Assembly (NCBI GenBank): GCA_964511175.1
Contig: CAZEEI010000002.1
Coordinates: forward strand, 66,063 to 130,062
Direction of reading: 5' to 3'
DNA length: 64,000 bases
Source of the DNA: an uncultured Pseudomonadales bacterium
Lineage (GTDB): Bacteria; Patescibacteriota; Microgenomatia; UBA1400; UBA1396
Below are positions 3,176 through 36,492 of this stretch, piece after piece. The first letter of the stretch is position 1, and the number at the start of each line of letters is the position of its first letter. A model generated the notes under the pieces. That model saw only the letters and a program-made list of their open reading frames with translations, was not told where the DNA came from and ran no database searches. The translations under genes were made by a program, and so were the position numbers.

Positions 3176-4378
3176 TTACTCGTACCGCAGGGCTTCAATC
3201 GGCGAGAGATTGGCGGCTCGCTTAGCCGGTGCCGCGCCAAAGATCAATCCCACCGCGGTCGATACGCCAAAAGCCAACATCACCGCTTCCCAAGTAATTT
3301 TAGCCGGGAAATATGGCTGGATAATTAGAGCGCCAATAAAGGCAATTAATAAACCAATTAATCCGCCTAGTACGGAAAGCAGAGCCGCCTCGATCAGAAA
3401 CTGGAACATAATTAAATTAGGAGTAGCTCCCAGTGCTTTCCGCAAACCAATTTCGCGGGTACGTTCGGTTACTGAAACCAGCATGATGTTCATAATGCCG
3501 ATGCCACCCACTACCAGGGAAATAGCCGCAATACCGCCTAAACCAATGGTTAATACACCTAATATCTGATTAATGGTGCTAAGCATTTTAGCTTGGTCTA
3601 CCACACTAAACTCATCTTCCTTTAGAACTTTTAGCATGGTTTTTTCGATTCTTTTCTGGGCTTCTTCCACATAATCCTTGTCACGTACTTGAAGGGTAAA
3701 ATGGTCAATCAGTTCCGAATTAACAAGATCAAATAACGTGTGTAGGGGAAGAAAAACGTAATTATCTATTCCTTCTGCGCCAAAGCCGCCCTTTTCTTCT
3801 AAAACGCCGACTACCTTAAAAGTTTGACCCTCCAGCTTCATTTTTTTATTAACCGGATCAACGCTACCGAAAAGCTCCGTGGCCACCTTATGACCCAGAA
3901 CCGCAACCCGTTCTTTGCGCTCATCATCGGCGTCAGTAAACCACTGCCCTCGCGCTATTTTGATGTCACCAATGTCCTTATAATCAATAGTAATACCCAG
4001 TAAAGTAACCACTTTAGTAGTTTCGCGGTATTTGCCATCAGCGACGTTGGTCGCCGCCACCGCTCCATTACTCAGTAGATCGGAGTTTTCCCGTAGAATC
4101 ATGTTGAGGTAACGTGGTTTGAGTGTCGGCTTCATAGACTCAAGAAAGGTTGACTGACCAAAGCCACCACTTTCGCCAAAAGGGTTTCCTGGGACAACGT
4201 AAATGGTGTTGGTTCCTAAACTAGCGAATTGATCGGTAATGTAGGCCTGGAGACCGGTACCGATACTAGTTAACAGAACTACCGAGCCCACGCCGATCAC
4301 CACCCCCAGCATGGTTAAAAAGGAGCGGGTTTTATTAGCGAGTATGGCCTTCAGGGCGATTAGGACGATGTCTTTCAT
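3176..4378 (-). CDS. ABC transporter permease, MacB/FtsX-like
   Basis: An N-terminal TM helix, a large extracytoplasmic domain and then 3 C-terminal TM helices (FtsX-like fold). It overlaps the upstream ATPase gene by 4 nt. Confidence 0.7.
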   Translation of the reverse strand: MKDIVLIALKAILANKTRSFLTMLGVVIGVGSVVLLTSIGTGLQAYITDQFASLGTNTIYVVPGNPFGESGGFGQSTFLESMKPTLKPRYLNMILRENSDLLSNGAVAATNVADGKYRETTKVVTLLGITIDYKDIGDIKIARGQWFTDADDERKERVAVLGHKVATELFGSVDPVNKKMKLEGQTFKVVGVLEEKGGFGAEGIDNYVFLPLHTLFDLVNSELIDHFTLQVRDKDYVEEAQKRIEKTMLKVLKEDEFSVVDQAKMLSTINQILGVLTIGLGGIAAISLVVGGIGIMNIMLVSVTERTREIGLRKALGATPNLIMFQFLIEAALLSVLGGLIGLLIAFIGALIIQPYFPAKITWEAVMLAFGVSTAVGLIFGAAPAKRAANLSPIEALRYE

Positions 4379-5106
4379 TTTTTCTTCTTAGCTTGTTTAG
4401 CAGCCAGGTGCCGGAGCTCGGTCTGATTTTTTACTTTTTGATCACCCGTAACGTGGCCGTCTCTAAAGGTAATCAACCGGCGGGCCATTTCGGCGGTTTC
4501 CAGTTCGTGGGTGACCACAATGACGGTTTTACCTTCGTGGTATAGATCGCTCAACAACTTAATGATATCTTCACCGCTTTTGGAATCCAGGTTACCGGTG
4601 GGTTCGTCGGCAAAAATAATTGATGGATCATTAATGAGAGCCCGGGCAATGGCGACTCTTTGCTGCTGACCGCCGGAAAGTTGAGATGGTTGATTATTGA
4701 TCCGATCAGCCAAATCAACCTTAGCCAACATGGCCAGCGCGCGCTGCCGACGTTCACGGCTGGAAACACCGGCGTAAACCAGCGGCAAAGCCACGTTTTC
4801 CCAAGCGGAGGTGCGGGGTAGCAGGTTAAATTGCTGGAAGATGAAACCAATTTCGCGGTTTCGCAAGCGCGCCCGCTCAACTTCGTTGTATTCGGTTACT
4901 TTTTTGTCCTTAAGGTAAATTTCGCCGGTCGAAGGATGAGCCAACATACTGGCAATCTGCAGGAAAGTAGATTTGCCGGAACCGGAGGGACCCATGACTG
5001 CGACAAACTCACCCTCACCCACCGACAAGGAAATATCGTCGAGCGCCTTAATGGTAGTCTCGCCTAGAGTGTAGAGCTTGGAGACTTTCTCTAGTTGCAA
5101 CAGCAT
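4375..5106 (-). CDS. ABC transporter ATP-binding protein (MacB/LolD class)
   Basis: Walker A GPSGSGKST, ABC signature LSGGQQQRVAIARAL and Walker B IIFADEPTGNLD. Confidence 0.85.
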   Translation of the reverse strand: MLLQLEKVSKLYTLGETTIKALDDISLSVGEGEFVAVMGPSGSGKSTFLQIASMLAHPSTGEIYLKDKKVTEYNEVERARLRNREIGFIFQQFNLLPRTSAWENVALPLVYAGVSSRERRQRALAMLAKVDLADRINNQPSQLSGGQQQRVAIARALINDPSIIFADEPTGNLDSKSGEDIIKLLSDLYHEGKTVIVVTHELETAEMARRLITFRDGHVTGDQKVKNQTELRHLAAKQAKKKK

Positions 5107-5108
5107 GT

Positions 5109-6161
5109 TTACTCGGGTACCACGATTTCGTCTTGTTCACTCAGTCCAGAAGTAACCTCAATCTTGTCTTCATTTTCCAGTCCCGTGGTAATTTCCCTAT
5201 CTTCAGTAGTATCTGGGCCGGTTTTAACACTGACGTAGGTTTTACCATCACGTTGCTTGATGGCAATTAAAGGGATGGCCAGAACCGATTGGTGTGTATC
5301 GATCGTAATCGCTACATCGCCATTCATACCAATTTTGAATTGCTGTAATTGTGGGTCCTGCAGCGGAAATTCGACGATAAAAACCGTACCGGTAGTGGCT
5401 TGACTGCTGGTATAGGCAACATAAGTGATGGTGCTGGAAAAATCTTGATCCGGAAAAGCATCAAGAGAAATGTTAGCTGATTGGCCAATTTTCACCTGGC
5501 TGATATCAGCCTCATCTACAGCTGCTCGGAAGACTAAAGTCTTAGGGTTGACTACTTCAAAATAATCAGTGGCTAACAGTTGCACTCCTGGAACGAGAGT
5601 TGGCGTATGGGTTAGCAAACCATCCATTGGTGAAAACAGAGAAGTGTTTTTAATGGCGATATCGCGAATTTCCACATCGAGCACAGTGTTAGTTAGATCC
5701 CACTGCTCCTGATCTTTTTCCCGCCGTTCATTTTGGGGCAGGGCGCGATCCTTACTGTCGTCCAAGGTCTGGTCCCAGTCCCAGCGTTCCTGCATATAAG
5801 CATTAAGATCTTGCTGCAGTTCTTTTTGTAAAGTAGCTCGGTCAATAGTGGCAATGGTTTGGTACTTTTTGACAAATTCACCCTCTTTAGCGCCGACGTA
5901 AACTACTTTGCCGCCCGCAATAAAACGCAGGTTGGCTTTTTCCTTAGCATCGATTAGGCCGGATACCTCGAGAGTTTGAGTAATATCTTCAATCTGCGGC
6001 TTAGCAAAGATTAATTGGGGTTTACTTTTCTGCTGCTGCCGATACCGCCAAAAAACAACTAAACCGATGATAATAAGCAATGAAAGTAATAATTTCCAAT
6101 GCCGTTGAATGAAGGCTATAACCCATTTAAATGGTCGAATTAACAAATTAATCATAATCAT
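5109..6161 (-). CDS. HlyD-family periplasmic adaptor (membrane fusion protein)
   Basis: An N-terminal TM anchor, a coiled-coil-rich middle and a beta-barrel-like C-terminus. It is the first gene of a 3-gene operon with the ABC ATPase and permease. Confidence 0.6.
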   Translation of the reverse strand: MIMINLLIRPFKWVIAFIQRHWKLLLSLLIIIGLVVFWRYRQQQKSKPQLIFAKPQIEDITQTLEVSGLIDAKEKANLRFIAGGKVVYVGAKEGEFVKKYQTIATIDRATLQKELQQDLNAYMQERWDWDQTLDDSKDRALPQNERREKDQEQWDLTNTVLDVEIRDIAIKNTSLFSPMDGLLTHTPTLVPGVQLLATDYFEVVNPKTLVFRAAVDEADISQVKIGQSANISLDAFPDQDFSSTITYVAYTSSQATTGTVFIVEFPLQDPQLQQFKIGMNGDVAITIDTHQSVLAIPLIAIKQRDGKTYVSVKTGPDTTEDREITTGLENEDKIEVTSGLSEQDEIVVPE

Positions 6162-6251
6162 TTTCTACACAACAAACTGGTCGTGACCGACCAGATTGAT
6201 TATAACAACAAACGGTGATTGTAGCACAGTTGCTATACTGTGAAGGAGATT

Positions 6252-6695
6252 ATGAAACGGTTGCGCTTACTACTAGCCCTGCTCCTTACGATTGGCAGCG
6301 GCGCGCTTTTATGGTGGATACAGTTTTCGCCCCAGAATCCAAGTGCTTCTCTGGCTCAATTTAAACCTGTTTTGCCAGGTTGGCAGGAAACAATCAGTAA
6401 TGCGGATCAAACAGTGGCTCAAGGCATTCGCGAAGTTGCCGCTGGCCGGATAAAGTTGGGGGATATCCTACCCGTCACGGCTTGGCAGCAAGTTAGTAAC
6501 GCCACTTTGTCAGCTGAGATTGTTACTTCGCCGGACGAACTATGGCGAACTTGGCGCGAGCAGGGTAGTCAGGCGGTGTTGCAATCTTTAGGCAATAACG
6601 TCGAGTACAAAGTTAACGATGTTTCTGCCGCCACGGTTAACGAGGTGCGCTACCAGTACTGTAAGGGTGTAGTCGAAGAGTACGAGAAACATTAG
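6252..6695 (+). CDS. hypothetical secreted/membrane-anchored protein
   Basis: The ORF track starts at GTG 6240, but the ATG at 6252 is preceded by AAGGAG. There is a hydrophobic N-terminal signal-like segment (LLLALLLTIGSGALLWW). Confidence 0.4.
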   Translation: MKRLRLLLALLLTIGSGALLWWIQFSPQNPSASLAQFKPVLPGWQETISNADQTVAQGIREVAAGRIKLGDILPVTAWQQVSNATLSAEIVTSPDELWRTWREQGSQAVLQSLGNNVEYKVNDVSAATVNEVRYQYCKGVVEEYEKH

Positions 6696-6821
6696 GGTTA
6701 AGCCGAATCGGATTCGTTAGGTACAATATATCGAAATGGCCGAAACCAACAGTTGTACAACTATTGGTTTTACGGTTTTTTCACTCTACCTCAAGAGGGA
6801 AGCTCCCGCTATACTATACCC

Positions 6822-7922
6822 ATGATTCTGGATAAAACTCTTACCGATCGTTGGGATAGCGCCCAGCAAAAAGCACTCGATCTACAGCACTCGATTTCCC
6901 GTCAAGCCAAACACAATGAGCTAGCCGATTTACAAAAAGAAACTCTCCAACCTGATTTTTGGCAGGATCAGAGTCGAGCCGCCGCGATTAATCAGCAAAT
7001 TGCGGCCGCCCAAAATGAACTAGATATTTTAATCGAACAAGACCAATTATTAGCCGATATCCAAGCTTCACTGGAACTACTGGCTGAAGCCGCTGATGAA
7101 ACACTGCGTAGTGATGTGGCCAGACAGATAGGTCGGCTCGAAAAAATTAATAAAGAGATTGAATTAAAAACTTATTTAAACGGTCCCTATGATGCCAATG
7201 ACGCTATTTTAGCGATCCACGCCGGACAAGGTGGTACCGAGGCCATGGATTGGGCCAGCATGCTACAGCGGATGTATACCCGCTACTTTGAACGCCGCGG
7301 TTGGTCAGCGGAATTGATCGATGAAAACCAGGGAGAGGAAGCGGGGATCAAATCGGTAGCCTACCTAGTTTCGGCGCCTTATGCTTATGGTTATCTGAAG
7401 GGAGAAAAGGGAACCCACCGTTTAGTACGTCAAAGTCCTTTTAACGCGGATGCACTTCGTCAAACCTCTTTTGCCGGCGTGGAAGTGACGCCGGTTTTAC
7501 CAGAGGAAGATGCTTCGATTGAGCTTAGCCTGGACGACTTAGAGTGGCAGTTCACCCGCGCTGGCGGGCATGGCGGCCAAAACGTCAACAAGGTTAATAC
7601 CGCGGTGCGCCTAACTCACTTGCCCAGCGGCATTATTGTAGAAACACGTCAGGAGCGTAGCCAGGAACAGAATAAAAAATTGGCCCTTCAGTTACTAAAG
7701 GGTAAACTGGCCGAAAAACAGGAAGCGCAGCGCGAGCAAGAGCTAGCCGCCGTCAAGGGGATACATAAGCAGGCTTCGTGGGGAAACCAGATTCGCAATT
7801 ACGTTTTACACCCATATCATTTGGTTAAAGACACCCGCACCGAAGTTGAAACCAGCGATACCGCCGGAGTTTTAGATGGTGATTTGGACGAATTTATTTT
7901 TGCCGAAGTAACTCTTTTGTAA
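6822..7922 (+). CDS. prfB: peptide chain release factor 2
   Basis: GGQ motif ([13 protein letters not shown]) and the RF2-specific SPF motif (QSPFNA). The N-terminus MILDKTL... aligns with the RF2 N-terminus in a single frame. Confidence 0.85.
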
Positions 7923-8603
7923 TTGGTCGCTCGCTGGTATATTGAATCCATGTCATTCAATCGCGTCTCACTTTCCCACAAAACTAGTGAAAAAACTAGC
8001 GATGAACCGGCCGAGAAACCGATTTCTTTTCGTTCGCGAGTGGTGATTGAACCGGACGGGGACGCGGCCATAACCGATCATTTTCAGGAGGTAGATAGCG
8101 ATATGTTCACTGGAGTTTCACGGCGGGTGGTAATTGGTGTACTAATTGCAGTCGTACTGCTGGGTACGGGTAGTGGCTATGGTGTAGCTCGCTTAATGGC
8201 TGCGGGTGGCGCAAATTATCAAGTAGAGACTTCAACGCCCGAGGAAGTGGAAAATAAGATTCAGGCCGGTGCCGTCTTTGGTGTACCAGACGAAAAAACC
8301 TTTAAGGATGATGCTGAAGGCGTCTTGATTAAAGGTGGTTTGTCCGGTGAGGGGTCGCATACCCTACTGCGCCCAGGTGGAGAATCACAGAACGTTTACC
8401 TAACTTCCTCCGTAGTTGATTTAGATCAGTTTGTGGATGCCCGCGTTCAGGTGTGGGGAGAAACTTTTAAAGGTCAAAAAGCCGGTTGGCTAATGGACGT
8501 TGGCCGCTTAGAAATTAAAGAACTAGCTGCAGCCAAGCCAGACTGGTACCAGGCCGATCAAGAAGAAAAAACCAGCCAAGAAGATCAAGAAAATAACGAG
8601 TAG
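7923..8603 (+). CDS. hypothetical membrane-anchored protein (start uncertain, possibly at internal MFTGVS)
   Basis: A single TM helix (VVIGVLIAVVLLGTGSGYGVARLMAAGG) is followed by a roughly 130-aa acidic extracytoplasmic region. Confidence 0.35.
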   Translation: MVARWYIESMSFNRVSLSHKTSEKTSDEPAEKPISFRSRVVIEPDGDAAITDHFQEVDSDMFTGVSRRVVIGVLIAVVLLGTGSGYGVARLMAAGGANYQVETSTPEEVENKIQAGAVFGVPDEKTFKDDAEGVLIKGGLSGEGSHTLLRPGGESQNVYLTSSVVDLDQFVDARVQVWGETFKGQKAGWLMDVGRLEIKELAAAKPDWYQADQEEKTSQEDQENNE

Positions 8604-8616
8604 TGGTGATACAACC

Positions 8617-9345
8617 ATGGTCAAGTTCGAAAAGGTTAGCAAGATTTTTGCCAATGGTTATATCGGTTTGCAGGACGTTTCCTTTATCATTGAGCCTCAG
8701 ACCTTAACTTATTTAGTCGGTGAGTCTGGCGCGGGCAAAACTACCTTGATGCGCCTATTGATTCGGGAAATGCCGGTTTCGGAAGGGGAAATTTGGATTG
8801 ACGACTGGTCGGTGACACAGTTGCCTAACAAAGAAATACCGCACCTGCGCCGGAAAGTAGCGGTGGTTTTTCAAGACTACAAGTTAATAGCCGACCGCAA
8901 TGTTTGGGAGAATGTCGCCTTACCTCTGGAAATTGTCGGTACATCGGCGGCGGTTTTAAACCAGCAAGTGCAGGATGTTTTAGACCTAGTTGGCTTGGCT
9001 GATCGGGGCGACATGTTTCCTACCCAATTATCAGGGGGAGAGTTACAGAGAGTATCTTTAGCCCGTTCGCTAATTACTTCGCCTAAAGTTTTATTTGCCG
9101 ACGAACCAACCGGCAACTTAGATCCAAAAACCTCACGCGCCATTGGTGAGTTGCTCCACAAGATTAGTGAGTTGGGCACGACCGTCATTATTGCCACCCA
9201 CGATCAAGTCTTGCTGCAAGATTTTCCGGCCAGGGAACTCCATCTACATAAGGGCAAATTGGTCAAAGATACCGGCACACGATCTAAACCAGCTCCCGCC
9301 ACCCAATCCAAACAGCGGAAAAAAGAGAAAAAGGAAAAGTTATGA
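8617..9345 (+). CDS. ftsE: cell division ATP-binding protein FtsE
   Basis: Walker A GESGAGKTT, signature LSGGELQRVSLARSL, Walker B LFADEPTGNLD. It is followed by an FtsX-like permease with a 4-nt overlap. Confidence 0.85.
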   Translation: MVKFEKVSKIFANGYIGLQDVSFIIEPQTLTYLVGESGAGKTTLMRLLIREMPVSEGEIWIDDWSVTQLPNKEIPHLRRKVAVVFQDYKLIADRNVWENVALPLEIVGTSAAVLNQQVQDVLDLVGLADRGDMFPTQLSGGELQRVSLARSLITSPKVLFADEPTGNLDPKTSRAIGELLHKISELGTTVIIATHDQVLLQDFPARELHLHKGKLVKDTGTRSKPAPATQSKQRKKEKKEKL

Positions 9346-10211
9346 ATTCCTTCAGCCAAGCGGTGAAAAGCATCCGTCGTTCGCCTTATCAGGCTATGGC
9401 GGCTACTATCATCCTCTTCTTAACTTTTTTTATCGGTTACAGTTTAGCCCTTTTTCTGCTTGGTTCCCACCAGGTTTTGCTTTACTTTGAAACCCGCCCG
9501 CAGGTTACTGCCTTCTTCCGCCAAGATACCACTTTGCCGCAATTACAAAGCTACGCTGAAGCTCTCAAGCAAAAGAGCTACGTCAAAAACGTCAAATTGG
9601 TTTCCCAAGAGGAAGCGTTGGAGATTTATCGCCAGCAGTCAAGTAACGATCCAGTTATGCTCGAGTTAGTAACAGCTGATATTTTGCCGCCCTCCCTGGA
9701 AGTTTCAACCTTTGCGCTGGACCAGTTAGCCCAAGTGGCTGCCGATTTACAGCAGTTGGCGGGCATTGACGAAGTAGTGTACCAGGAGGATGTGATCGCT
9801 GGTTTACGTCATTGGGCAACATTGTTGCGTCAGATTGGTTTGGCCATCATGGCAATCTTTACCGTTACGTCATTGCTGGTGATTCTGGTTATTACTAGCA
9901 TCCGGATCGCGAGCAAAAAGTTGGAAATTAGGGTACTGCGCCTAATGGGAGCTACTAAATGGTATATTCAGCGCCCCTTTTTATTGGAAGGAATGTTCTA
10001 CGGCGTGCTGGGATCGGTTTTGTCCTGGGGTGCGGTATATATTATTCTGCTTTACGCCAGTCCCAGCATTCAACAGTTTTTCGGCGAAGTACAATTATTA
10101 CCCGTGCCGGCAGAACTGATGCTAGCTCTACTAGCGGCTGGTACTGGCTTAGGCTTAATTTTAGGTATGTTGGCTAGCTTGTTAAGTGCGCGTCGGTTGT
10201 ACCGTATCTAG
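9342..10211 (+). CDS. ftsX: cell division permease FtsX
   Basis: An N-terminal TM helix, an extracellular loop domain and 3 C-terminal TM helices. The start overlaps ftsE as ATGA. Confidence 0.8.
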   Translation: MNSFSQAVKSIRRSPYQAMAATIILFLTFFIGYSLALFLLGSHQVLLYFETRPQVTAFFRQDTTLPQLQSYAEALKQKSYVKNVKLVSQEEALEIYRQQSSNDPVMLELVTADILPPSLEVSTFALDQLAQVAADLQQLAGIDEVVYQEDVIAGLRHWATLLRQIGLAIMAIFTVTSLLVILVITSIRIASKKLEIRVLRLMGATKWYIQRPFLLEGMFYGVLGSVLSWGAVYIILLYASPSIQQFFGEVQLLPVPAELMLALLAAGTGLGLILGMLASLLSARRLYRI

Positions 10212-10232
10212 AACCCTTTATACTGCTAATAC

Positions 10233-11468
10233 ATGCGTAAGATCTGGTCTGCTTGGCTATCTGGTTTAGTAATGATCCTGCTGGTGGGTTTTGCTTTGGC
10301 AGCCACTCAGCCCGTCCTGGCCGAAGAGTCAACCAGTGCTAGTACCGAAAAACAGAGCGCCATCGACAGGCTAAATCAAGAAATTCAAGATTTACAAAAT
10401 AAAATCAAGGACGCGCAGAACGAACAGAATACTTTAGCCAGCACGATTAAGTTTTTGGATAGCAAGATTTTGTTGACCGGTAAGGAAATTGAAAAATCCG
10501 AACGGGAAATTGAATTGTTGGAAGCGGCGATCGATGATCTAGGGCAGCGTATTCAAGGGCTAGAAGTTAATCTGCACGATCTCTCTGCCGAGTTGATCGA
10601 ACGCGTCCAAGAGCAATACAAACGCAGCTCGACCGATGCCGTCTCGGTGATTTTTGCCACGACCGGTTTTACCGATTTATTTAAAGAACATAAATATCTG
10701 GTCCAACTACGGGCTCATACCCAACGGTTGCTTTTGGATACAGAGACTAAGCGCCAACAATACGATGCGGAAAAGGGTAATAAGGAGGCCAAGCAAAAGG
10801 AGGTGGAGGCCTTGCGGCGTAAGTTGGAGGCTAACCGGCGTGATTTGTTAAGTCAGCAGGCGGCCAAAAAACAATTACTAGTTGAAACCCAGAATAGTGA
10901 GGCTAAGTACCAAAGTTTGTTGGCCCAGGCCAAATCGCAATTGGCTGCTCTCCACCGCTTCGTAGTGGGTCAAGGTGGCGCCAGTATTTTGCAGAATCAA
11001 ACTAAATGTGACGATTGGGGTTGTTACTATAACCAGCGGGATTCCCAGTGGGGTAATATCAGTTTAGGCGGTTCGTCATACTCGGTGGCGGAATACGGCT
11101 GTTTGGTTAGTTCGGTAGCGATGGTAGCCACTCATTACGGCAAAAATATTAAACCAGCCGACATTGCGGTAATATCTGCGGCTTTTGTACCAGGGTACGG
11201 TTGGCTTTATCATTCGTTTGCGGTTAACGGTACACAAGTTAACCTAACTAGTGCTTCCCGTAGTCTGCTGGATAACGAACTAGCGGCTGGGCGGCCGGTG
11301 ATCGCCGGTTTATACTCTGGTCCGGATCACTTTATCGTTATTGTGCGCAAAGAAGGGGATAACTACATCATGCATGACCCCTTTTTAGAGAATGGCAGTT
11401 ATCGATCGCTGACCGACAAATACAATGTCGCCGACATTCGCAGTTTGCGCCTAGTACGGTTCAATTAG
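10233..11468 (+). CDS. secreted coiled-coil protein with a C-terminal papain-like (Peptidase_C39_2-like) cysteine peptidase domain; PcsB/EnvC-type FtsEX partner candidate
   Basis: Signal peptide, then roughly 200 aa of heptad-rich coiled coil (LQNKIKDAQNEQNTLASTIKFLDSKI...). The C-terminus carries Cys in YGCLVSSVAMVATHYG and His in HFIVIVRKEGDNYIMHDPF, matching the C39-like Cys/His layout. Confidence 0.5.
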   Translation: MRKIWSAWLSGLVMILLVGFALAATQPVLAEESTSASTEKQSAIDRLNQEIQDLQNKIKDAQNEQNTLASTIKFLDSKILLTGKEIEKSEREIELLEAAIDDLGQRIQGLEVNLHDLSAELIERVQEQYKRSSTDAVSVIFATTGFTDLFKEHKYLVQLRAHTQRLLLDTETKRQQYDAEKGNKEAKQKEVEALRRKLEANRRDLLSQQAAKKQLLVETQNSEAKYQSLLAQAKSQLAALHRFVVGQGGASILQNQTKCDDWGCYYNQRDSQWGNISLGGSSYSVAEYGCLVSSVAMVATHYGKNIKPADIAVISAAFVPGYGWLYHSFAVNGTQVNLTSASRSLLDNELAAGRPVIAGLYSGPDHFIVIVRKEGDNYIMHDPFLENGSYRSLTDKYNVADIRSLRLVRFN

Positions 11469-11506: not shown

Positions 11507-12370
11507 GTGCGAAGCTACGGGTGGTGGTTGGCCGGTTTGGTTTTCTTTGGTCTAGCGGGGCGGGTTTGGGCCGCCGAATTGCACCTGCGGGCAATCTATC
11601 CCAATCCGCCGGGTAACGATACCGGCGAATGGCTGGCTGTAGAAAATAACGGTACAGCTTCCGTGGCCGCCGGTTTGGCTAGTTTGCGCGATAAATTCGG
11701 GTCGACTAAAACCTACCTCTTACCAGCTCTTTCGGCCCAGGAATTAAAAATTATTACCGCCAGCGAATCCGGCATTACTCTCAACAATACCCGCGAGGCG
11801 GTGGAACTGCTGAAGCAAAACGTAGTGATTGATGCCTCACCGGAGTTTGTGGCTAGCCAAGAAGGAATGGTATTTATCCAGTTAAACGAAGGCTGGCGGG
11901 AAATTAGTTTGGCCGAGTATTTGGAGAGACAATTGAATCGCAACTGGTCAACTGTCGCGGTAACAGAAGATGATGATAGTACGGAACCGGATACCACAAC
12001 AGCCACAGTCAGCGCTACTTTTACTCCTTTACCCTGGGCAACACTCATTGCACCGGCACCTGACCGTGCGGCAAAACAAGTTGAACTTTCGTCGGATTTG
12101 CCAACTCAGGCCAGCCCTGCGCCGCTGCCTTATCGTGTCCCGCATTTGTTTACCGGTTCGCCTGCCCGTGCTTCACCAGCCGGAGAGTTAAACTGGCCTT
12201 TGCCGCCGGAGCCGGATTATGATGCCGAAATGCAGGTTTTCCTTGATTGGAAACGACGTGCTCTGTTTGGTTCACTGGCTTTGGTTTGGGGTGGTCTATG
12301 TTGGTTGCTACTGGTGATACCGCCGCCGCCAGTCCTGTGGCACTGGTTGCGGGATGAACTTTTACTGTAG
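11507..12370 (+). CDS. lamin-tail-domain (LTD) protein with a C-terminal Pro-rich TM anchor
   Basis: Signal peptide, then an LTD-like motif IYPNPPGNDTGEWLAVENNGTASV. There is a Thr/Pro-rich linker and a C-terminal hydrophobic helix plus PPPP. Confidence 0.4.
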   Translation: MRSYGWWLAGLVFFGLAGRVWAAELHLRAIYPNPPGNDTGEWLAVENNGTASVAAGLASLRDKFGSTKTYLLPALSAQELKIITASESGITLNNTREAVELLKQNVVIDASPEFVASQEGMVFIQLNEGWREISLAEYLERQLNRNWSTVAVTEDDDSTEPDTTTATVSATFTPLPWATLIAPAPDRAAKQVELSSDLPTQASPAPLPYRVPHLFTGSPARASPAGELNWPLPPEPDYDAEMQVFLDWKRRALFGSLALVWGGLCWLLLVIPPPPVLWHWLRDELLL

Positions 12371-12379
12371 GATAAACAA

Positions 12380-12772
12380 GTGTCTAGTTGGCAGAAATGG
12401 TTTTCTTTTGGACCGGCGGCGGCGTGGTACGCCTTCATTTTTTGGCTTTCCAGCCAGCCCAAACTGCCTGGTCCTGAAAATACTTTAGCGCAATTGTTAT
12501 GGTTTAAAACCGCCCACCTGATTTTTTACGCCATTCTCACTTGTTTATTAATTTGGGCCCTGCGACAGACAATGCACTGGCGAGCCGCCACTTACCGCTG
12601 GTTACTGTTGCTGGCTTTTTGGTTAGTGGTATTCCCGGCTGGACTAGACGAGCTTCACCAGGGTTTAGTGCCGGGGCGCCATATGCGTTGGCGAGACATA
12701 GTAGTTGACGCATCGGCAGCTGCGGCTGTAATCCTGGTATTCTCGCGGTATAATCGCCCTGGTAAGCCTTAA
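12380..12772 (+). CDS. VanZ-like family membrane protein
   Basis: Four TM helices and a conserved C-terminal acidic/Arg region (GRHMRWRDIVVDA), typical of the VanZ-like family. Confidence 0.45.
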   Translation: MSSWQKWFSFGPAAAWYAFIFWLSSQPKLPGPENTLAQLLWFKTAHLIFYAILTCLLIWALRQTMHWRAATYRWLLLLAFWLVVFPAGLDELHQGLVPGRHMRWRDIVVDASAAAAVILVFSRYNRPGKP

Positions 12773-12774
12773 TT

Positions 12775-12852
12775 CGGGATGTAGCTCAGATGGCTTAGAG
12801 CGCACGCATGGGGTGCGTGAGGTCGCTGGTTCGAGTCCAGTCATCCCGACCA
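12775..12852 (+). tRNA. tRNA-Pro (anticodon GGG), 3' CCA encoded
   Basis: Manual cloverleaf: acceptor CGGGATG/CATCCCG, D-arm GCTC..GAGC, anticodon stem CACGC/GCGTG with loop AUGGGGU (U33, anticodon GGG, G37). T-arm GCTGG-TTCGAGT-CCAGT, discriminator A, then CCA. Confidence 0.8.
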
Positions 12853-28618: not shown

Positions 28619-30367
28619 ATGCGTGATTTTAATCAAGGTTTATCACTAATCGAACAACGCCTGCGGTTGGGGCGTCTGGTTTTTGGTCTAGTTGTTTTAC
28701 TACTGTTGGGGCGTTTGGCTTACTGGCAATTATGGCAGCATGTGACTTTGTCTCAGGCAGCAGAGGCACAGTATGCCACCTCGCGAGCCATTCAAACTCA
28801 GCGCGGCACTATTTTTGACCGACATGGCCAAGTGATGGCCACTAACCAAGAGCGATATACTTTATTTGCCGAACCGCCGGTTCTGACGGCCGATCCGCCC
28901 ACTATTGTAGATAAGTTGTGGCCGATTTTAGCTACTTCGCTGGAGATTCCAGCCGAACGTGCGTCCGATGAAGCTTGGTTAAAAACCCAATCTCAAAATT
29001 GGCAAAACGAATTAGTTTCGACCTTAAGCGCTACGGATCGCAAGTGGTTGCCGCTCTGGCACCGTCTGGACCGCACCCAGCGTGACCAGATTAACGGTTT
29101 ATCTCTGACTGGTTTGGGTTTTGATCCCCGGGAGTATCGCTTGTATCCAGACGCGTCGGTATCGGCTCACATTTTAGGATTTGTCGGCAAGAATGAACAG
29201 GGCGAAGATCAAGGGTATTTTGGGGTAGAAGGTTACTATGATTTGGAGTTGCGCGGCCGGGCAGGGCGCGAAGAGCGCCAAACCACTGCCTTGGGTTTGC
29301 CGATCGCTCTAGGTCAAAGTCAGCAGTTGCGCGCCCAGCCCGGCCGCGACTTAGTACTAACCATCGACAAGGCCCTGCAATTTCGGGTTGAACAAGCCTT
29401 GCTAGCTGGTATTGAGCGTTATGGTGCCGCCAGTGGTGAGGTGGTAATTATGGATCCCCACAACGGTGAGATTTTAGCGATGGCGGCTTTTCCTAATTAC
29501 GACCCCAGCCATTTTCTCGATTTTGATCCCAAAGATTATCGTAATCCGGCGATTGCCGACCTTTATGAACCAGGTTCGACCTTTAAGATTCTAACGGTCG
29601 CGGCTGGTTTGGAAGAGGGGGTGATTACGCCGGAAACCCAGTGTCCAGACTGTGATGGCCCGCGCCTCATTTCCGGTTCCCCCATCCGCACCTGGGATGA
29701 ACAGTATCACCCCAACATCAACATTCGTGACGCGCTGGCCTTATCCGACAACACAGCTATGGTTTTTGTACAGGAACAGTTGGGTAAAGAATCTTTTCTG
29801 TCCTGGTTGCGCCGATTTGGTTTAGACCAGAAGACAGGAATTGATTTGCAGGGCGAAGAACAATACCTTTTCCGGCCGGATGACCAGTGGCGAACCATCG
29901 ACATAGCTACCGCCTCGTTTGGGCAAGGGATTGCTGTTTCCAGCCTAAGTCTAGTGAGAGCGGCGAGCGCGATTGCCAACGGTGGTTTTTTGATTCAACC
30001 TCACGTAGTGCAATCGGTTATTGATCAGGGTGTAACCCTGCCGGTGGAAACCGATCCGCCTCAAACCATTTTGTCGCCGGAAACGACCCGCACCGTTACC
30101 GACTTAATGATCAACGCTGTCCAAAAAGGTGATGCTAAATGGGTGGCTCCCCAGGATATGGTGGTGGCCGGTAAGACTGGCACTGCCCAAATTGCGGAAA
30201 AGGGGAAGTATTTAGAAGACAAAACGATTGCCAGTTTTATTGGTTTTGCGCCGGCCGATCATCCCGAATTTGTAATGTTGGTTAAACTGCGCGAACCAAC
30301 TACTTCACCTTGGGGTTCGGAGACGGCCGCACCGCTTTGGTTCCAGATTGCTCACTTTTTACGGTAA
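28619..30367 (+). CDS. ftsI: penicillin-binding protein 2/3 (FtsI-type transpeptidase)
   Basis: A TM anchor, a PBP dimerisation domain, and transpeptidase motifs SxxK (STFK), SxN (SDN) and KTG(T) (KTGTAQ). Confidence 0.85.
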   Translation: MRDFNQGLSLIEQRLRLGRLVFGLVVLLLLGRLAYWQLWQHVTLSQAAEAQYATSRAIQTQRGTIFDRHGQVMATNQERYTLFAEPPVLTADPPTIVDKLWPILATSLEIPAERASDEAWLKTQSQNWQNELVSTLSATDRKWLPLWHRLDRTQRDQINGLSLTGLGFDPREYRLYPDASVSAHILGFVGKNEQGEDQGYFGVEGYYDLELRGRAGREERQTTALGLPIALGQSQQLRAQPGRDLVLTIDKALQFRVEQALLAGIERYGAASGEVVIMDPHNGEILAMAAFPNYDPSHFLDFDPKDYRNPAIADLYEPGSTFKILTVAAGLEEGVITPETQCPDCDGPRLISGSPIRTWDEQYHPNINIRDALALSDNTAMVFVQEQLGKESFLSWLRRFGLDQKTGIDLQGEEQYLFRPDDQWRTIDIATASFGQGIAVSSLSLVRAASAIANGGFLIQPHVVQSVIDQGVTLPVETDPPQTILSPETTRTVTDLMINAVQKGDAKWVAPQDMVVAGKTGTAQIAEKGKYLEDKTIASFIGFAPADHPEFVMLVKLREPTTSPWGSETAAPLWFQIAHFLR

Positions 30368-30399
30368 TTTGCTATGCTAAGTGGCGAAAGGTTTAAAGT

Positions 30400-31644
30400 A
30401 TGAGGGTTGGCAAAGCAAGCACGGGCGAATCAGGATTAGGTAGAACTCAATTATTAACCGAAAAGCTTAAGCCGCAAAAAGAAAGAAAAATCCGCTGGTT
30501 CCGTTGGTGGAAAATTCTTTTAGGTTTAATTTTAGTAGGAGTGGTGACGGCGCCCAGCGGGAGTGAAAAAGTTTCCGCATTTGATCCGAATAATCAAGAG
30601 ATTCCAAGCGGGTGGGGGCTAGCCAGCTTGCTTGTTGACGCTGTCCGACAAGAGGCAGAAGCCGAAGCCAAAAAAATTGAAGATACCCTGGCCAGTGAGG
30701 TTGGAGAACGGGTTAATCCCTACTACCAACCCTACAGCGAAATAATGGCGCAGGGAATAGAAGAGTTTAAAGCGGCCCACCCAGATATACCAGTGGTCTG
30801 GCATAAATCTGAACAATATTTTGATGATACCGATCTGATCCGCATACTACTGACACCAATTACCGCAGAGGAGGTTTGGACTGACGAGGATGTTGGTACA
30901 TTACCAATCAAATATTTAGCCTCAGCAGCCACTAATAGTAGTACTGAAGACATGTCTAAACTTTCCTTGTTGATAAAGCATCGTTTACCTCCAGAAATAC
31001 TTGAGACTATTTTGCTTGCCGAGAGTCAAATACCAGTTGTCCCGGGGACTGATTTATATAACCAAGCAGGCGATCTTTATGACGAGAGTAGTTGGCAGCT
31101 TTTTGAGACATACTACAACGAAATTAAGCAAGATTTAGAAACAATATATCAAGAGAGAGGTGGTGGGGAGCCATTGTCCCAGTCTGCGGTCTTAGCTTAT
31201 TTTTTGGACAAATATAACGGTGATCTCAATGCTGCCCTGAGCGATTTATCCGGATTTATGAAGCAAATGAGATTCCAAATTAATTGGTTGCGAAAATATA
31301 TTCAGGATCAACATAATCCCTATTTTTCCCTCAATGATTTACCTCCTTTTGGTGAAACTACGGATTTTCCGGGCAAACATTTTGCCCAAAGTGATTTACT
31401 ACTCTATGACACAATGCCTGGGGAACAGCAGGATTGGGCCACCAGTATTTGGGGTCTGAGCTATCACTCACCATATATGGTAAAGCTTTTGTCGGACTCT
31501 TCGCCAGAAGTAATTAAATTGTTTTGTCTCTACGAATACATAAACTATGATCATGTAGCCGAGCCATACAAAGAAATTTATGATTTTCTTATGCTGGACG
31601 AACTTTACGAGATACTCGCCCTGCTTGAGTCCTATAGTCGATAG
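30400..31644 (+). CDS. hypothetical membrane-anchored protein (414 aa)
   Basis: A basic cytoplasmic N-terminus, one TM helix (WKILLGLILVGVVTA) and an approx. 350-aa acidic ectodomain with no recognised motif. It sits in an AT-richer segment. Confidence 0.4.
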   Translation: MRVGKASTGESGLGRTQLLTEKLKPQKERKIRWFRWWKILLGLILVGVVTAPSGSEKVSAFDPNNQEIPSGWGLASLLVDAVRQEAEAEAKKIEDTLASEVGERVNPYYQPYSEIMAQGIEEFKAAHPDIPVVWHKSEQYFDDTDLIRILLTPITAEEVWTDEDVGTLPIKYLASAATNSSTEDMSKLSLLIKHRLPPEILETILLAESQIPVVPGTDLYNQAGDLYDESSWQLFETYYNEIKQDLETIYQERGGGEPLSQSAVLAYFLDKYNGDLNAALSDLSGFMKQMRFQINWLRKYIQDQHNPYFSLNDLPPFGETTDFPGKHFAQSDLLLYDTMPGEQQDWATSIWGLSYHSPYMVKLLSDSSPEVIKLFCLYEYINYDHVAEPYKEIYDFLMLDELYEILALLESYSR

Positions 31645-31731
31645 GTATTCCTGTAAAAGGGATGAAGTTGTATAGGGATATAGACCAATACCGAGAATTG
31701 TAATAGGATGAATGTATTGTAAGGGAGTGTT

Positions 31732-33819
31732 ATGCCAGAAAAAAATGGGCCTGATTTTGATAATCCAGGAATGACACCACAGCTCTATGAGGGTCCGGTT
31801 GCCTATACTCTGGATACACAAAAGCATTCGGTGAAAATTGGTGCTACAGATCTGGATTCTATAGAAACTACGCGCATAACTAATGAATCTTCTCCAGAAA
31901 GCCAGCAAGCCTTTGTCGAACAACGTCAGCATATGGCTGAGATGGAAAATGCCATGATGGATGCATCAGTGCTTATTACTGCAGAGGGTGTGGATCCGGC
32001 AGTTAAAGCTGAATTGCGAGCCTATCTACAGTCAATTGGGAAAAGCATTCAAACACTTGTTGCCAAGATGCCAAAGTTGAAAGAAACATATGCCTATATT
32101 TTTAAGGCACAAAAGAGACAGCTCGAACCGCACAGACCATCGCTTACAGTTGCCCCGGAAGTGGTTTTACCCGTAGATTTGGCAAGGGAAGCCAAACAAC
32201 ATGTCCAGGATTTTCTGTTTGGGGGCGAGGGGTCTTCTGGCACGCCGCGCATTAACATTAAAGAGAATACCACTACACAAAAACTGGAGATAAGTTCCTA
32301 TCGGTATATTCCTGATCCCGGCGGAAATCCTCATTTAGATAGAGAAGAGGTTGTTCCTCTCGGATGGAGAGGTAATGTTGATTGGCAACCAGATAGCGGG
32401 GTGCGACGCAAATATCCCGATCTAGACAAGCTTTGTTTAGCTTTAAAACCGATTCTAGAGAGAGAAGTAGCCAGTATTTTGCCGAGTTTATCAACAGAGC
32501 CCTTGGCCAAGGCAACTAGGGCAAAAATTGAAGCCTGTTGTGCCAATAAAACGGCTAATGTTTTGTATACCCTTGATAGTGCCTTTGACTCCAAGAGTTT
32601 GGTGACCGATATATCCCTAGAGGGGCCGGACAAATCAGGCATAGTAGAGGCTGTGATGTTGCGACGGGAACAAGGGGTAGGAAAAAAGAAAGCCGACCGT
32701 TTACATTTGCCTGAAACGGCTTATCTAGATAGAAAACGAGTTGAGCCTCAAGATCTGTCTGACCCCCAACTACGAGCTGATTTGAGTGATCTACACGGTT
32801 CGGGCGTGTCAGAGGCTGAGTTGATGGGGTTATATGCTCCTCTGCCTGATTATGCACTACGAGCGTTGGAAGGCTTGCTGGACGACGAGGGGAATGTGGT
32901 GAGTTTGGTGTCGCGTGATCAGATTATGGCGCTGTTTGATGTTTCATCAGGAGCTCCACATCAGTCGAAAAATACTTTGTTAGACCAAATAAGTAAAGAT
33001 GTGGCCGATATTGTCATCCTAAAAGAAAAAAGGAAACATCAAGCTGATGTTGATTTAAAATCTACGCTTGATCGGCAACAAAACGGTTTATATCAGGAGA
33101 TTAGGAGTTTTCTGGCTAAATTAAATCCGCCCGCTTCTCGACTAGAGGATGTAGTGGCGCGAAAAGGAAGACTTGGCTTAGGTGGCGTAACCAATCAAGC
33201 CGATGTCGAAGCCAGGGAAGATTTTGAACGCCGCCAGACTGAATTGAGCGAACAGCAACGAGTGGTTAGTGAAAGGTTGAAGGCCTATAAGCCACAGACT
33301 GTTTATGGTTCGCAGGATGAGGGACAAGTTATGGCAGGGATTCAGAGACAGCTTGATCGTGCTGTCACGCTTACCTACAAAGCGGGGTCCTTACCAATCA
33401 TTTTGGACCAAGATTTATTTAAGGGTGTGACATCGGAACCGATGGAAACTTTAGTTGACCGATTACGGGAAAAACTTGATCAGCAAGCACAAAAGATAGC
33501 GTCGACCGTAGCGGCTGAAACGGCAGCGACGATAGATAAATTGACACAGGACTTTGCCAGAACTAAGGCTCTTTTAGAAAGAGTGATGGAAACCCCGGAT
33601 CAATCAAGGATGCAGGAGGCTGTTTTAGCCTATATTCAGGGAAGAATGTACAATTTTTCAGATGATCGGTTGTCTATGTATAAACCTGAGCAAAGAATCT
33701 TCTATTATGCTGGCCAAAGAAGCCGGGCAACGGCGGCGAGGTGGTCTGTTTCGTCGGTTCCTGAGAATATCCGAGAGAGAGTGCGGCTTTTTGATGTTTT
33801 GCCTCAAGATGCGGTATAG
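31732..33819 (+). CDS. large hypothetical protein (695 aa)
   Basis: A long uninterrupted ORF with an RBS-like GGGAG upstream. No TM segments or motifs were recognised. The composition is similar to the preceding ORF. Confidence 0.45.
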   Translation: MPEKNGPDFDNPGMTPQLYEGPVAYTLDTQKHSVKIGATDLDSIETTRITNESSPESQQAFVEQRQHMAEMENAMMDASVLITAEGVDPAVKAELRAYLQSIGKSIQTLVAKMPKLKETYAYIFKAQKRQLEPHRPSLTVAPEVVLPVDLAREAKQHVQDFLFGGEGSSGTPRINIKENTTTQKLEISSYRYIPDPGGNPHLDREEVVPLGWRGNVDWQPDSGVRRKYPDLDKLCLALKPILEREVASILPSLSTEPLAKATRAKIEACCANKTANVLYTLDSAFDSKSLVTDISLEGPDKSGIVEAVMLRREQGVGKKKADRLHLPETAYLDRKRVEPQDLSDPQLRADLSDLHGSGVSEAELMGLYAPLPDYALRALEGLLDDEGNVVSLVSRDQIMALFDVSSGAPHQSKNTLLDQISKDVADIVILKEKRKHQADVDLKSTLDRQQNGLYQEIRSFLAKLNPPASRLEDVVARKGRLGLGGVTNQADVEAREDFERRQTELSEQQRVVSERLKAYKPQTVYGSQDEGQVMAGIQRQLDRAVTLTYKAGSLPIILDQDLFKGVTSEPMETLVDRLREKLDQQAQKIASTVAAETAATIDKLTQDFARTKALLERVMETPDQSRMQEAVLAYIQGRMYNFSDDRLSMYKPEQRIFYYAGQRSRATAARWSVSSVPENIRERVRLFDVLPQDAV

Positions 33820-33860
33820 CTTGTTTATCTACTTCGCTGAGGTGCTATTCTATAAAAGTA

Positions 33861-35054
33861 ATGTTGAGTTTATTGCGTGTCCGCCGCATTCACCACTGGT
33901 TTAGTTCTTTTCTGTTTAGGGCTTTACCAGCCAATCTGTATTATGGTTTCCCAGGTCGAAGGCTGAAAATCTACGGCATTACCGGTACAGATGGTAAAAC
34001 GACTAGTGCCACTTTGCTTTATCAAGTACTTAAAACGGCTGGTTATAAAGTGGCACTAATTTCGACCGTGGCGGCTTTTATCGGCAATGAGGAAATCGAT
34101 ACCGGCTTCCACGTGACTTCGCCGGAGCCGTGGGCGCTGCAGCGATTGTTGCGCCGTTGTTTGGATCGTGGAATCGAACATGTAGTGCTGGAGGTAACTT
34201 CGCATGGTTTTTTTCAGTACCGAACGTGGGGCACTGAGTTTGCTGTGGCTGGTTTGACCAATATCACTCCGGAGCACCTCGATTATTTTGAAACTTATGA
34301 GCGATATGCACGAGTAAAAGGCGAATTTTTATTATCAGCTAAACAAGCGATTCTTAATAAATCCGATCGTTCCTTTTCTTTACTGCAGCTGATGTTTAAC
34401 CGACACCATCACACCTATTTAATTTATGATCAGAAACTAAGCAGTAATGAGGTTGATCGTGCCATTAGTGATCGTTTTACCGAACCCTACAATTGCTGGA
34501 ATGCCAAATTGGTGTGGGCCATGGCGGAGCAACTAGGTATTACCACTAATGTTTTTACCCAAGCCTCAACCTCTTTTACTGGTGTGCGCGGCCGGATGGA
34601 AGAGATTGCCAACCGAACCGGTAAGCGGGTGATTGTTGATTTTGCCCATACACCCAACGGACTAGAGCAAGCCCTGACCGCTTTGCGCCCGCAAGCCAAA
34701 CAACAACTAATTGCGGTTTATGGGTGCGCGGGTTTTCGCGACCGTAGTAAACGGGCGCCGATGGGACGAATTGGCACCGAGATTGCTGATCTTTGCGTTT
34801 TCACCAGCGAAGACCCGCGCACGGAAGATATCCAAGTAATCATGCGCCAGATGAAAGAGGGAGTGCAGCCGCCCCACCACCGCAAGATCGTTACTATTCC
34901 CGATCGACGCGCCGCCATCGCTTTTGCTCTCCAACAAGCCAAACGCGGTGACGTGGTAGGCATCTTTGGTAAGGGTCACGAAAAGTCTTTGTGTATCGGT
35001 AAAAAGGAATATCCCTGGTCGGATCAGGAAACGGTGCGGGAGTTGTTAGGCTAG
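33861..35054 (+). CDS. murE: UDP-N-acetylmuramoyl-L-alanyl-D-glutamate--2,6-diaminopimelate ligase
   Basis: Mur ligase P-loop GITGTDGKTT and the DxR/HTP C-terminal region (DFAHTPNGL) match MurE. The N-terminal domain is short. Confidence 0.75.
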   Translation: MLSLLRVRRIHHWFSSFLFRALPANLYYGFPGRRLKIYGITGTDGKTTSATLLYQVLKTAGYKVALISTVAAFIGNEEIDTGFHVTSPEPWALQRLLRRCLDRGIEHVVLEVTSHGFFQYRTWGTEFAVAGLTNITPEHLDYFETYERYARVKGEFLLSAKQAILNKSDRSFSLLQLMFNRHHHTYLIYDQKLSSNEVDRAISDRFTEPYNCWNAKLVWAMAEQLGITTNVFTQASTSFTGVRGRMEEIANRTGKRVIVDFAHTPNGLEQALTALRPQAKQQLIAVYGCAGFRDRSKRAPMGRIGTEIADLCVFTSEDPRTEDIQVIMRQMKEGVQPPHHRKIVTIPDRRAAIAFALQQAKRGDVVGIFGKGHEKSLCIGKKEYPWSDQETVRELLG

Positions 35055-35087
35055 TTTAGTCGGGATTAACCGAATGTTTAAGATAAG

Positions 35088-35906
35088 ATGGTAAAGAATA
35101 AACTGACAGCAATCACTCGCTGGTTTATTGGCACCTTCTTTGTTCTAGCAATTCTCTCGGTCTGTCAACCGAAATCCGCTCCGACACCTGTTCTCGAAGT
35201 TATTCAGCCAGAAACGACACCAACCCTCACTAGCGAACCACCCACCCAGCCAGAAAGCAACAAACAAGAAGCCACTTTAATTCGGGTAATTGATGGCGAT
35301 ACGGTGGAGGCTTCAATCAGTGGCAGTAAGCAGACAATTCGGGTTATTGGCATTGATACTCCTGAGACGGTTGATCCTCGGAAAAGGGTTGAGTGTTTTG
35401 GCACTGAGGCATCTAAGCAAGCCAAACTTTACTTTGAAGGTAATGAACAAATTTGGCTGGAGTCAGATTCGACTCAGAGTGATAGGGACAAATACGGCCG
35501 ATTGTTGCGTTATATTTTTACCGATGATGGTTCGGTGGATTATGGCCGGGTAATGATTACTCTTGGCTATGCGAACGAATACACCTACAGCAATCCTTAT
35601 AAATATCAATCAATTTATCAGCAAGCCGAACAAGAGGCTCGAGACGGCAAGAAAGGGTTGTGGGCAGATGATGCTTGCGTGGCTACGCCGAATCCAACTG
35701 CTAAACCAATTACTAATTCACAACCAGTCGCGCCGGCAACGAGTGTTGGGAAAAAAAGTTGCTCTGGACCAGATTTAGACTGCGGTGATTTTTCTTCGCG
35801 TTCCGAAGTCCGCCAATTTTGGAACGCTTGTGGATTTTCAGCCAGTAATGATCCGCATAGACTTGATGGTAGTGACCAAGATGGTCAACCCTGTGAGAGT
35901 TTATAA
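35088..35906 (+). CDS. secreted thermonuclease (SNase-like) with a C-terminal Excalibur Ca-binding domain
   Basis: A signal/anchor segment. The SNase core is VIDGDTV...IRVIGIDTPE...GRLLRYIF...GYA. The C-terminus DCGDFSSRSEVRQFWNACG...DPHRLDGSDQDGQPCE matches the Excalibur consensus. Confidence 0.7.
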   Translation: MVKNKLTAITRWFIGTFFVLAILSVCQPKSAPTPVLEVIQPETTPTLTSEPPTQPESNKQEATLIRVIDGDTVEASISGSKQTIRVIGIDTPETVDPRKRVECFGTEASKQAKLYFEGNEQIWLESDSTQSDRDKYGRLLRYIFTDDGSVDYGRVMITLGYANEYTYSNPYKYQSIYQQAEQEARDGKKGLWADDACVATPNPTAKPITNSQPVAPATSVGKKSCSGPDLDCGDFSSRSEVRQFWNACGFSASNDPHRLDGSDQDGQPCESL

Positions 35907-35981
35907 AACCTGATTAGAGACCGCAGGCTAGGGCGATGTATAATTTTCTTGTATCACTACGCTACTACATAGAAAAAAGAC

Positions 35982-36476: not shown

Positions 36477-36492
36477 AGTAGCCTGGCAGCAT

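Follow-up and report, generated by a model that had tools for sequence, protein, structure and literature searches.

A predicted FtsEX-controlled peptidoglycan hydrolase with a C39-like cysteine hydrolase head in Microgenomates bacteria

Which enzyme is placed under the control of the FtsEX complex in the uncultivated bacteria of the Microgenomates is the question raised by a 64,000-nucleotide (nt) stretch of contig CAZEEI010000002.1 (assembly GCA_964511175.1), referred to below as the window, in which ftsE and ftsX are directly followed by a gene coding for a secreted protein of 411 amino acids (aa). Among the FtsEX partners covered in the review PMC11627006, the head domains are of the LytM (EnvC), CHAP (PcsB), and NlpC/P60 (RipC, CwlO) types, and C39 is not mentioned. 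An initial annotation of the window had described the 411-aa protein as a PcsB/EnvC-type partner of FtsEX equipped with a C39-like head, and this description is supported here by the architecture of the protein, the homology of its coiled coil, and the conserved gene order. In the light of these data, the protein is probably a peptidoglycan hydrolase directly controlled by FtsEX in a monoderm-type Patescibacteria (Microgenomates) cell, carrying a C39-like head and acting as a functional equivalent of PcsB, CwlO, and RipC.

The three open reading frames (ORFs) concerned, all on the forward strand, are genuine genes according to their domain matches, their PDB matches, and the public gene call, the 411-aa protein being identical to the public call P0001 on a 201-kb contig (Table 1). 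The product of ftsE matches TIGR02673 at 260.7 bits, slightly below the cut-off of 264.85, and its top PDB sequence matches are exclusively FtsE chains (E about 1e-55). The product of ftsX, whose start overlaps the end of ftsE by 4 nt, contains the FtsX_ECD extracellular domain (60.8 bits) and the FtsX permease domain, both above the Pfam gathering thresholds, and its PDB matches are FtsX chains from solved FtsEX complexes, save one weak match to the YtrF permease.

The conservation of this gene order was evaluated by scanning GTDB with one genome taken for each species, and a relative of the 411-aa protein was found in 312 genomes; the best 80 loci were retrieved, and counts of upstream genes are limited to the loci with sufficient upstream DNA. 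Of 74 loci, 73 carry ftsX immediately upstream and on the same strand, at a median distance of about 22 nt, and ftsE was recovered in 67 of 68. Besides, 64 of 66 loci encode a bitopic membrane protein directly upstream of ftsE, prfB is found upstream in 58 of 63, and a VanZ gene lies downstream of the hydrolase gene in about 30 of the 80. The loci whose records name a lineage of the Candidate Phyla Radiation (CPR) belong to Woesebacteria, Collierbacteria, Levybacteria, Shapirobacteria, Pacebacteria, or Microgenomates. The same operon is kept in the distant members P0232 and P0196, the former additionally keeping the downstream genes for a lamin-tail-domain (LTD) protein and VanZ as in the window; an LTD protein and VanZ after the hydrolase gene are seen at the distant locus L083, and the conserved block may extend past the hydrolase gene. 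In hundreds of species of Microgenomates, the standard is a coiled-coil/C39 protein encoded after ftsEX, and this genetic linkage indicates an association of the 411-aa protein with FtsEX.

As regards the origin of these sequences, metagenome-assembled genomes (MAGs) whose records are titled 'uncultured Gammaproteobacteria/Pseudomonadales bacterium' account for about 35 of the 80 related loci, one isolate being HK-STAS-PATE-15. These loci have 40-54% identity and the full prfB-unknown-ftsEX-C39 order in common with Woesebacteria, Collierbacteria, and Levybacteria, and the taxonomy in the titles of those MAG records looks unreliable.

What kind of protein follows ftsX was then read from its N-terminal and C-terminal parts. 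The initial annotation had claimed a signal peptide and a coiled coil of roughly 200 aa, and both were recovered. Sec-type signal peptides were recognized in all 30 relatives inspected, and the structural model of the window protein has a helix at residues 2-23; this signal sequence could alternatively act as an uncleaved anchor. Many relatives, the window copy not among them, carry a second cysteine pair directly after the signal peptide, and these residues may form disulfides. The full-length AlphaFold2 model, built from 52 homologues with a mean predicted local distance difference test (pLDDT) score of 78.9, consists of a two-helix hairpin of about 210 residues, a low-confidence linker at residues 246-253, and a confident globular C-terminal domain. 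In the same line, a significant heptad periodicity was measured along helix 1 (z up to 5), that of helix 2 being weaker.

The hairpin was further compared to solved coiled coils. When the family profile was searched against all PDB sequences, EnvC of four species ranked first (1.3e-7, 7.8e-6, 4e-4, and 1.1e-3), PcsB was recovered at 1.2e-3, and both the EnvC and the PcsB alignments spanned about 200 residues, whereas the alignments to generic coiled coils (e.g., GCN4, tropomyosin) covered about 70 residues only; RipA was matched at 0.047. In addition, the Pfam model CC_PcsB matches 37 of the 52 family members, with a best E-value of 1e-7. At the level of the fold, a Foldseek search with the whole model returned EnvC in the V. 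cholerae FtsEX-EnvC complex as the top match (1.4e-4), followed by PcsB (9e-4) and the complex of EnvC with the FtsX extracellular domain (ECD), Cg1735 and the N-terminal domain of RipA appearing at lower ranks. Taken together, these profile and model comparisons indicate that the hairpin is homologous to the coiled coils of known FtsEX partners. Its tip bears a motif conserved throughout the family, and the hairpin is presumed to be the element that docks onto the FtsX ECD and transmits the signal.

The C-terminal head was assigned to the C39 type in the initial annotation, to the exclusion of M23 and canonical CHAP domains, and the Pfam hidden Markov model search that had been named beforehand as the check bears this out. 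The full protein reaches 30.1 bits for Peptidase_C39_2 (PF13529; gathering threshold 24) and 24.5 bits for Peptidase_C39 (PF03412; gathering threshold 22), these scores rising to 32.7 and 26.6 bits, respectively, with the domain alone, and both families are above gathering in each of the 52 aligned relatives. Conversely, no match to CHAP (PF05257), NlpC/P60 (PF00877), or Peptidase_M23 (PF01551) was obtained with any of 20 domain sequences (E up to 10) or with any of the 52 full-length relatives (E up to 0.01). The quoted cysteine and histidine motifs, YGC290LVSS and PDH366FIVIV...H381D382PF, are present, and Cys290 and His366 are invariant; the third catalytic residue is Asp382, likewise invariant, its neighbour His381 being variable (H/N/R/Y) in relatives. 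More precisely, an exhaustive search with the domain alone as the query yielded about 150 cluster representatives, and Gln268, Cys290, His366, and Asp382 are invariant among them down to about 32% identity, gaps in fragments aside. A model of the domain alone reaches a predicted template modelling (TM) score, or pTM, of 0.82. In the full-length model, a helix has Cys290 at its N-terminus, a strand opens at His366, and Asp382 comes directly after the strand that follows, positions from which a papain-like arrangement is deduced. The fold is of the catalytic type with an intact triad, and the coiled coil is predicted as such, so that neither of the two outcomes named beforehand as refuting the initial annotation was obtained.

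At the start of the head, Cys259 and Cys264 form a C-x4-C pair (TKCDDWGC, window positions 11007-11024) that is invariant in the close family and present in about a third of the distant representatives, and this pair may form a disulfide.

Since EnvC is the top match of the coiled coil both in the sequence-profile and in the fold comparison, the protein could be a non-catalytic activator of the EnvC kind, whose head binds and switches on a separate amidase and cuts nothing itself. EnvC, however, has a degenerate LytM domain (PMC11627006), whereas the Gln/Cys/His/Asp set is invariant here across about 150 divergent sequences, which argues for retained catalysis. The EnvC-like non-catalytic reading, considered very improbable, was rejected on the basis of this invariant triad.

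The substrate of the head was approached through the domains found next to it. Among 148 head representatives, 99 display the coiled-coil architecture of about 400 aa, 40 are short (fragments or stand-alone proteins), and the remainder consists of 4 giant multidomain proteins and 5 proteins of other layout. In P0268 (L085, positions 5001-6353) and P0245, a head relative is fused to two LysM repeats in place of the coiled coil, and in P0260 to PG_binding_1; these fused relatives match the window domain at E about 1e-11 to 1e-12, and their fusions suggest peptidoglycan as the substrate. Besides, the window encodes Mur ligases, a class B penicillin-binding protein (PBP), and MurA, indicating that murein is made. 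The PcsB/EnvC-like architecture, in which the head stands where CHAP, NlpC/P60, or LytM is otherwise found, the LysM and PG_binding_1 fusions, and these murein synthesis genes speak indirectly for murein as the substrate of the head.

The giant multidomain proteins that also contain a head of this clade range from 1090 to 4234 aa, and one of them, P0262, carries dockerin, PA14, and NHL domains.

The fold comparisons of the head could be read differently. Its neighbours are the C39 peptidase domains of PCAT1, ComA, and LahT, the papain-like toxin CdiA-CT, the C39-like protein 3ERV of B. anthracis, and the wall enzymes Tse1/Tae1 and PeiR. Characterized C39 peptidases cut peptide leaders, and since the solved structures closest in fold are the peptidase domains of PCAT1, ComA, and LahT together with papain-like toxins, the 411-aa protein might be a secreted protease acting on a protein or peptide substrate, for example through double-glycine-type leader removal or surface-protein maturation; the coiled coil would then be a stalk or an oligomerization device, and the link to ftsEX incidental or regulatory only. 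In addition, C39_2 is given no wall function in the classification PMC10318531. Nevertheless, the protein is extracytoplasmic and without exporter fusion, its coiled coil is homologous to those of EnvC and PcsB, ftsX is adjacent at nearly all of the loci counted above (73/74), and the head clade is also fused to LysM and PG_binding_1, so that a protease of this kind appears improbable. A bacteriocin-leader peptidase was rejected on the basis of topology and genomic context.

The working of the FtsEX-controlled hydrolase can be proposed as follows. The protein would be exported by Sec, as read from its signal peptide, and the tip of its hairpin would dock onto the extracellular domains of the FtsX dimer, as suggested by the homology to the EnvC and PcsB coiled coils and by the near-universal gene adjacency. 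On the model of the EnvC and RipC complexes whose structures are solved, FtsE would bind and hydrolyse ATP and so induce a conformational change in FtsX, which would be passed along the hairpin and release the autoinhibited head. The Cys290-His366-Asp382 triad, with Gln268 as the oxyanion hole, would then cut an amide or peptide bond of murein during septation or wall growth. In this scheme, the parts themselves, their conservation, and their linkage are documented by the data; the docking step, the autoinhibition of the head, its activation, and the bond cut are inferred from the EnvC, RipC, and PcsB systems (PMC11627006), and murein would be the cleaved substrate according to the genomic context and to the LysM and PG_binding_1 fusions of the relatives.

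Several observations weigh against a murein hydrolase under FtsEX control. The fold matches of the head are weak (TM-score about 0.45-0.5, E 1e-3 to 1e-2), the coiled-coil similarity is partly compositional, and the window's own, more diverged copy shows no CC_PcsB match at E <= 0.1. In addition, no biochemical or genetic proof of peptidoglycan cleavage by any Peptidase_C39_2 protein was found in the searchable literature. At the level of gene order, P0249 and P0242 (loci L081 and L082), two distant coiled-coil/C39 proteins of 446-457 aa, are encoded directly after gltX and not after ftsEX, and ftsX is not upstream at L070, one of the 74 close loci. Because of these cases, the linkage is not absolute: it is very strong within the clade of the window protein and not universal for the coiled-coil/C39 architecture. 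The P0249/P0242 subgroup, in which the gene at L081 stands beside ftsW and murG, may be a second paralogue class unlinked to FtsEX.

Compared to the known systems, a close likeness is found with PcsB of Streptococcus pneumoniae (PDB 4CGK), an FtsEX-dependent CHAP hydrolase. Both proteins are secreted and about 400 aa long, and in both a coiled coil of about 210-225 residues is connected by a short linker to a papain-fold Cys/His head at the C-terminus, the layout that PMC11627006 gives for PcsB; both belong to a monoderm-type envelope and to an FtsEX partnership. They differ in that the hydrolase gene directly follows ftsX here, whereas pcsB is presumably unlinked to ftsEX in the pneumococcus, and in that the coiled coil is predicted to be a two-helix hairpin here but comprises five helices in PcsB. 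The head is of the Peptidase_C39_2/C39 type instead of CHAP, with a predicted Cys-His-Asp triad where Cys-His-Glu has been proposed for PcsB (PMC11627006). EnvC of Gram-negative bacteria (PDB 6TPI, 8TZL, 8HD0) has two long antiparallel helices as predicted here, its tip binding the dimer of FtsX ECDs (PMC11627006), but its head is a degenerate, non-catalytic LytM (M23) domain that activates separate amidases, in contrast to the intact and invariant cysteine-hydrolase site of the window protein.

CwlO of Bacillus subtilis and RipC of Mycobacterium and Corynebacterium, both FtsEX-activated NlpC/P60 endopeptidases, also combine a coiled-coil N-terminus with a cysteine hydrolase head of papain fold, and weak NCBIfam RipA and PDB RipA/Cg1735 matches over the coiled coil recall the RipC type. 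By contrast, the window protein has no NLPC_P60 match and no proline-rich linker, and an unrelated bitopic protein is conserved upstream of ftsE. The same FtsEX-coupled hydrolase could serve wall expansion in the growth phase, as CwlO does, rather than septal splitting and daughter separation as PcsB and RipC do. Automated annotation names relatives 'peptidoglycan hydrolase CwlO-like protein' at the Joint Genome Institute (JGI) and 'C39 family peptidase' at NCBI, nothing at the locus is specific to the septum, and the tip motif resembles the COG3883 type common to CwlO and PcsB. However, the Pfam model that matches the family, CC_PcsB, was built on PcsB, and distant paralogue-like members adjoin the division genes ftsW and murG. 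The data agree with either role, an exclusively growth-phase one being viewed as rather unlikely.

The likeness to the C39 and C39_2 proteins (ComA, PCAT1, LahT, and 3ERV) resides in Pfam membership, in the order Gln...Cys...His...Asp, and in their being the nearest solved folds, no PDB relative of the head having been found at the sequence level with either the full protein or the head profile as the query. In a library of viral structures, only weak matches were obtained, to multidomain phage proteins labelled 'peptidase', 'lysozyme', and 'morphogenesis hydrolase' (E >= 1e-3), and these were not used as evidence. Classical C39 domains are cytoplasmic, stand at the N-terminus of ABC (ATP-binding cassette) exporters, and cleave double-glycine leader peptides. 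The window domain, on the contrary, is C-terminal in a secreted coiled-coil protein of the PcsB type, linked to FtsEX and free of exporter fusion, and peptidoglycan-binding modules are found fused to members of its clade. In a 2023 classification of papain-like proteases, C39 and C39_2 fall in the papain/cathepsin cluster, apart from the cluster of NlpC/P60, CHAP, and amidases (PMC10318531), so that the head swap crosses major superfamily clusters.

The originality of this design is therefore to be stated with measure. The initial annotation had presented it as a third structural solution for the hydrolase controlled by FtsEX; this count overlooked CwlO and RipC with their NlpC/P60 heads (PMC11627006), and a C39-like head would rank as the fourth family. 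The claim does not hold at the level of the fold either, C39-like, CHAP, and NlpC/P60 domains all being papain-like cysteine hydrolases. A C39-headed FtsEX partner extends a known design; it neither creates a new one nor overturns a concept. A full-text search, from which most subscription journals fall outside and in which absence is no proof, brought up no paper in which FtsEX is tied to a C39-type hydrolase or FtsEX partners in Patescibacteria are covered, and searches for the COG3883 label and for cell-wall hydrolases of the papain-like type returned no title on an FtsEX-C39 pairing. Phage-lysin surveys do count Peptidase_C39_2 among the putative catalytic domains, with bioinformatics as the sole ground. 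In this context, FtsEX is a conserved switch through which the cutting of the wall is permitted when the cell divides, and the coiled-coil adaptor joined to a C39-like head would add a further output to it. This supports a modular view, in which a conserved mechanotransmission stalk is combined with an interchangeable cutter, offers a credible physiological function for a part of the Peptidase_C39_2 family, itself poorly understood, and provides a candidate division hydrolase for the uncultivated bacteria of the CPR, in which the biology of the wall has hardly been studied.

The gene that separates prfB from ftsE deserves attention in this respect. Its product has a cytoplasmic N-terminus, one transmembrane segment, and an extracytoplasmic domain of about 120 aa, matches neither Pfam nor PDB sequences, and has 3069 homologues, all unnamed and without Pfam domain. 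It is speculative to regard it as an accessory factor of FtsEX, with a role comparable to that of SweC/SweD or SteA/SteB. A bolder and rather doubtful proposal is that prfB, the bitopic protein, ftsE, ftsX, and the coiled-coil/C39 hydrolase form a module shared across the Microgenomates lineage, in which the hydrolase would be the first housekeeping murein hydrolase from the papain/C39 cluster, perhaps with a bond specificity of its own compared to CHAP and NlpC/P60 (e.g., a cross-bridge cut reminiscent of the double-glycine specificity of C39), and the bitopic protein a new FtsEX cofactor. If true, this would define a distinct division-hydrolase machine and open a view onto the wall chemistry of CPR bacteria.

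The genes from prfB through VanZ to the tRNA-Pro are co-directional and spaced by -4 to 38 nt (Table 1). A promoter and terminator scan of the cluster gave nothing interpretable above background and no convincing internal signals, so that the case for an operon is built on the spacing of the genes and on synteny. The mechanical ORF of prfB opens at a TTG and would add 23 implausible residues; its true start is likely the ATG at 6822 (MILDKT...), which gives a normal-length N-terminus of release factor 2 in a single frame. The programmed +1 frameshift is common in the prfB genes of bacteria, but the window copy seems to be devoid of it, since this ATG requires one frame only.

Table 1. Coordinates of the features discussed, given as positions in the 64,000-nt window.
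Feature	Position	Strand	Basis or remark
prfB, peptide chain release factor 2	6753..7922	+	PCRF + RF-1 domains; first gene of the conserved cluster
Conserved uncharacterized bitopic membrane protein	7923..8603	+	Public call: ATG 7950, 217 aa
ftsE, ATPase of the FtsEX complex	8617..9345	+	TIGR02673 and PDB FtsE matches
ftsX, membrane subunit with extracellular domain (residues ~54-145)	9342..10211	+	PF18075 FtsX_ECD + PF02687
Secreted coiled-coil protein with C39-like cysteine hydrolase head, 411 aa	10233..11468	+	
Sec-type signal peptide, residues 1-30	10233..10322	+	MRK, hydrophobic core, VLA/EE junction; hydropathy and N-termini of relatives
Antiparallel coiled-coil hairpin (helix 1, 37-132; tip, 133-145; helix 2, 146-247)	10341..10973	+	AlphaFold2
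Flexible linker, residues 248-258	10974..11006	+	pLDDT <50 at residues 246-253
Predicted papain-like C39-type catalytic domain, residues 259-411	11007..11465	+	Pfam C39_2 + C39
Gln268	11034-11036	+	In NQRD motif, upstream of Cys290
Cys290	11100-11102	+	Motif YGC290LVSS
His366	11328-11330	+	Motif PDH366FIVIV...H381D382PF
Asp382	11376-11378	+	Motif PDH366FIVIV...H381D382PF
Secreted/membrane protein, weak lamin-tail-domain match	11507..12370	+	PF00932, E 0.008
VanZ-family membrane protein	12380..12772	+	PF04892; last coding gene of the cluster
tRNA-Pro	12775-12852		Directly after the VanZ-family gene
Class B PBP	28619-30367	+	
ORF without Pfam match, 414 aa	30400-31644	+	Between class B PBP and first Mur ligase
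ORF without Pfam match, 695 aa	31732-33819	+	Between class B PBP and first Mur ligase
Mur ligase	33861-35054	+	
Mur ligase	37494-38960	+	
MurA	39928-41259	+	
MacB_PCD/FtsX-type permease	3176-4378	-	
ABC ATPase	4375-5106	-	
HlyD-like adaptor	5109-6161	-	

Elsewhere in the window, the genes for wall synthesis belong to a cluster of the dcw (division and cell wall) type at positions 28619-41259 on the forward strand. Finally, a second type VII ABC system is encoded at positions 3176-6161 on the reverse strand, divergently from the ftsEX cluster; it is a MacB-like set of tripartite style, in a host that is presumably monoderm.

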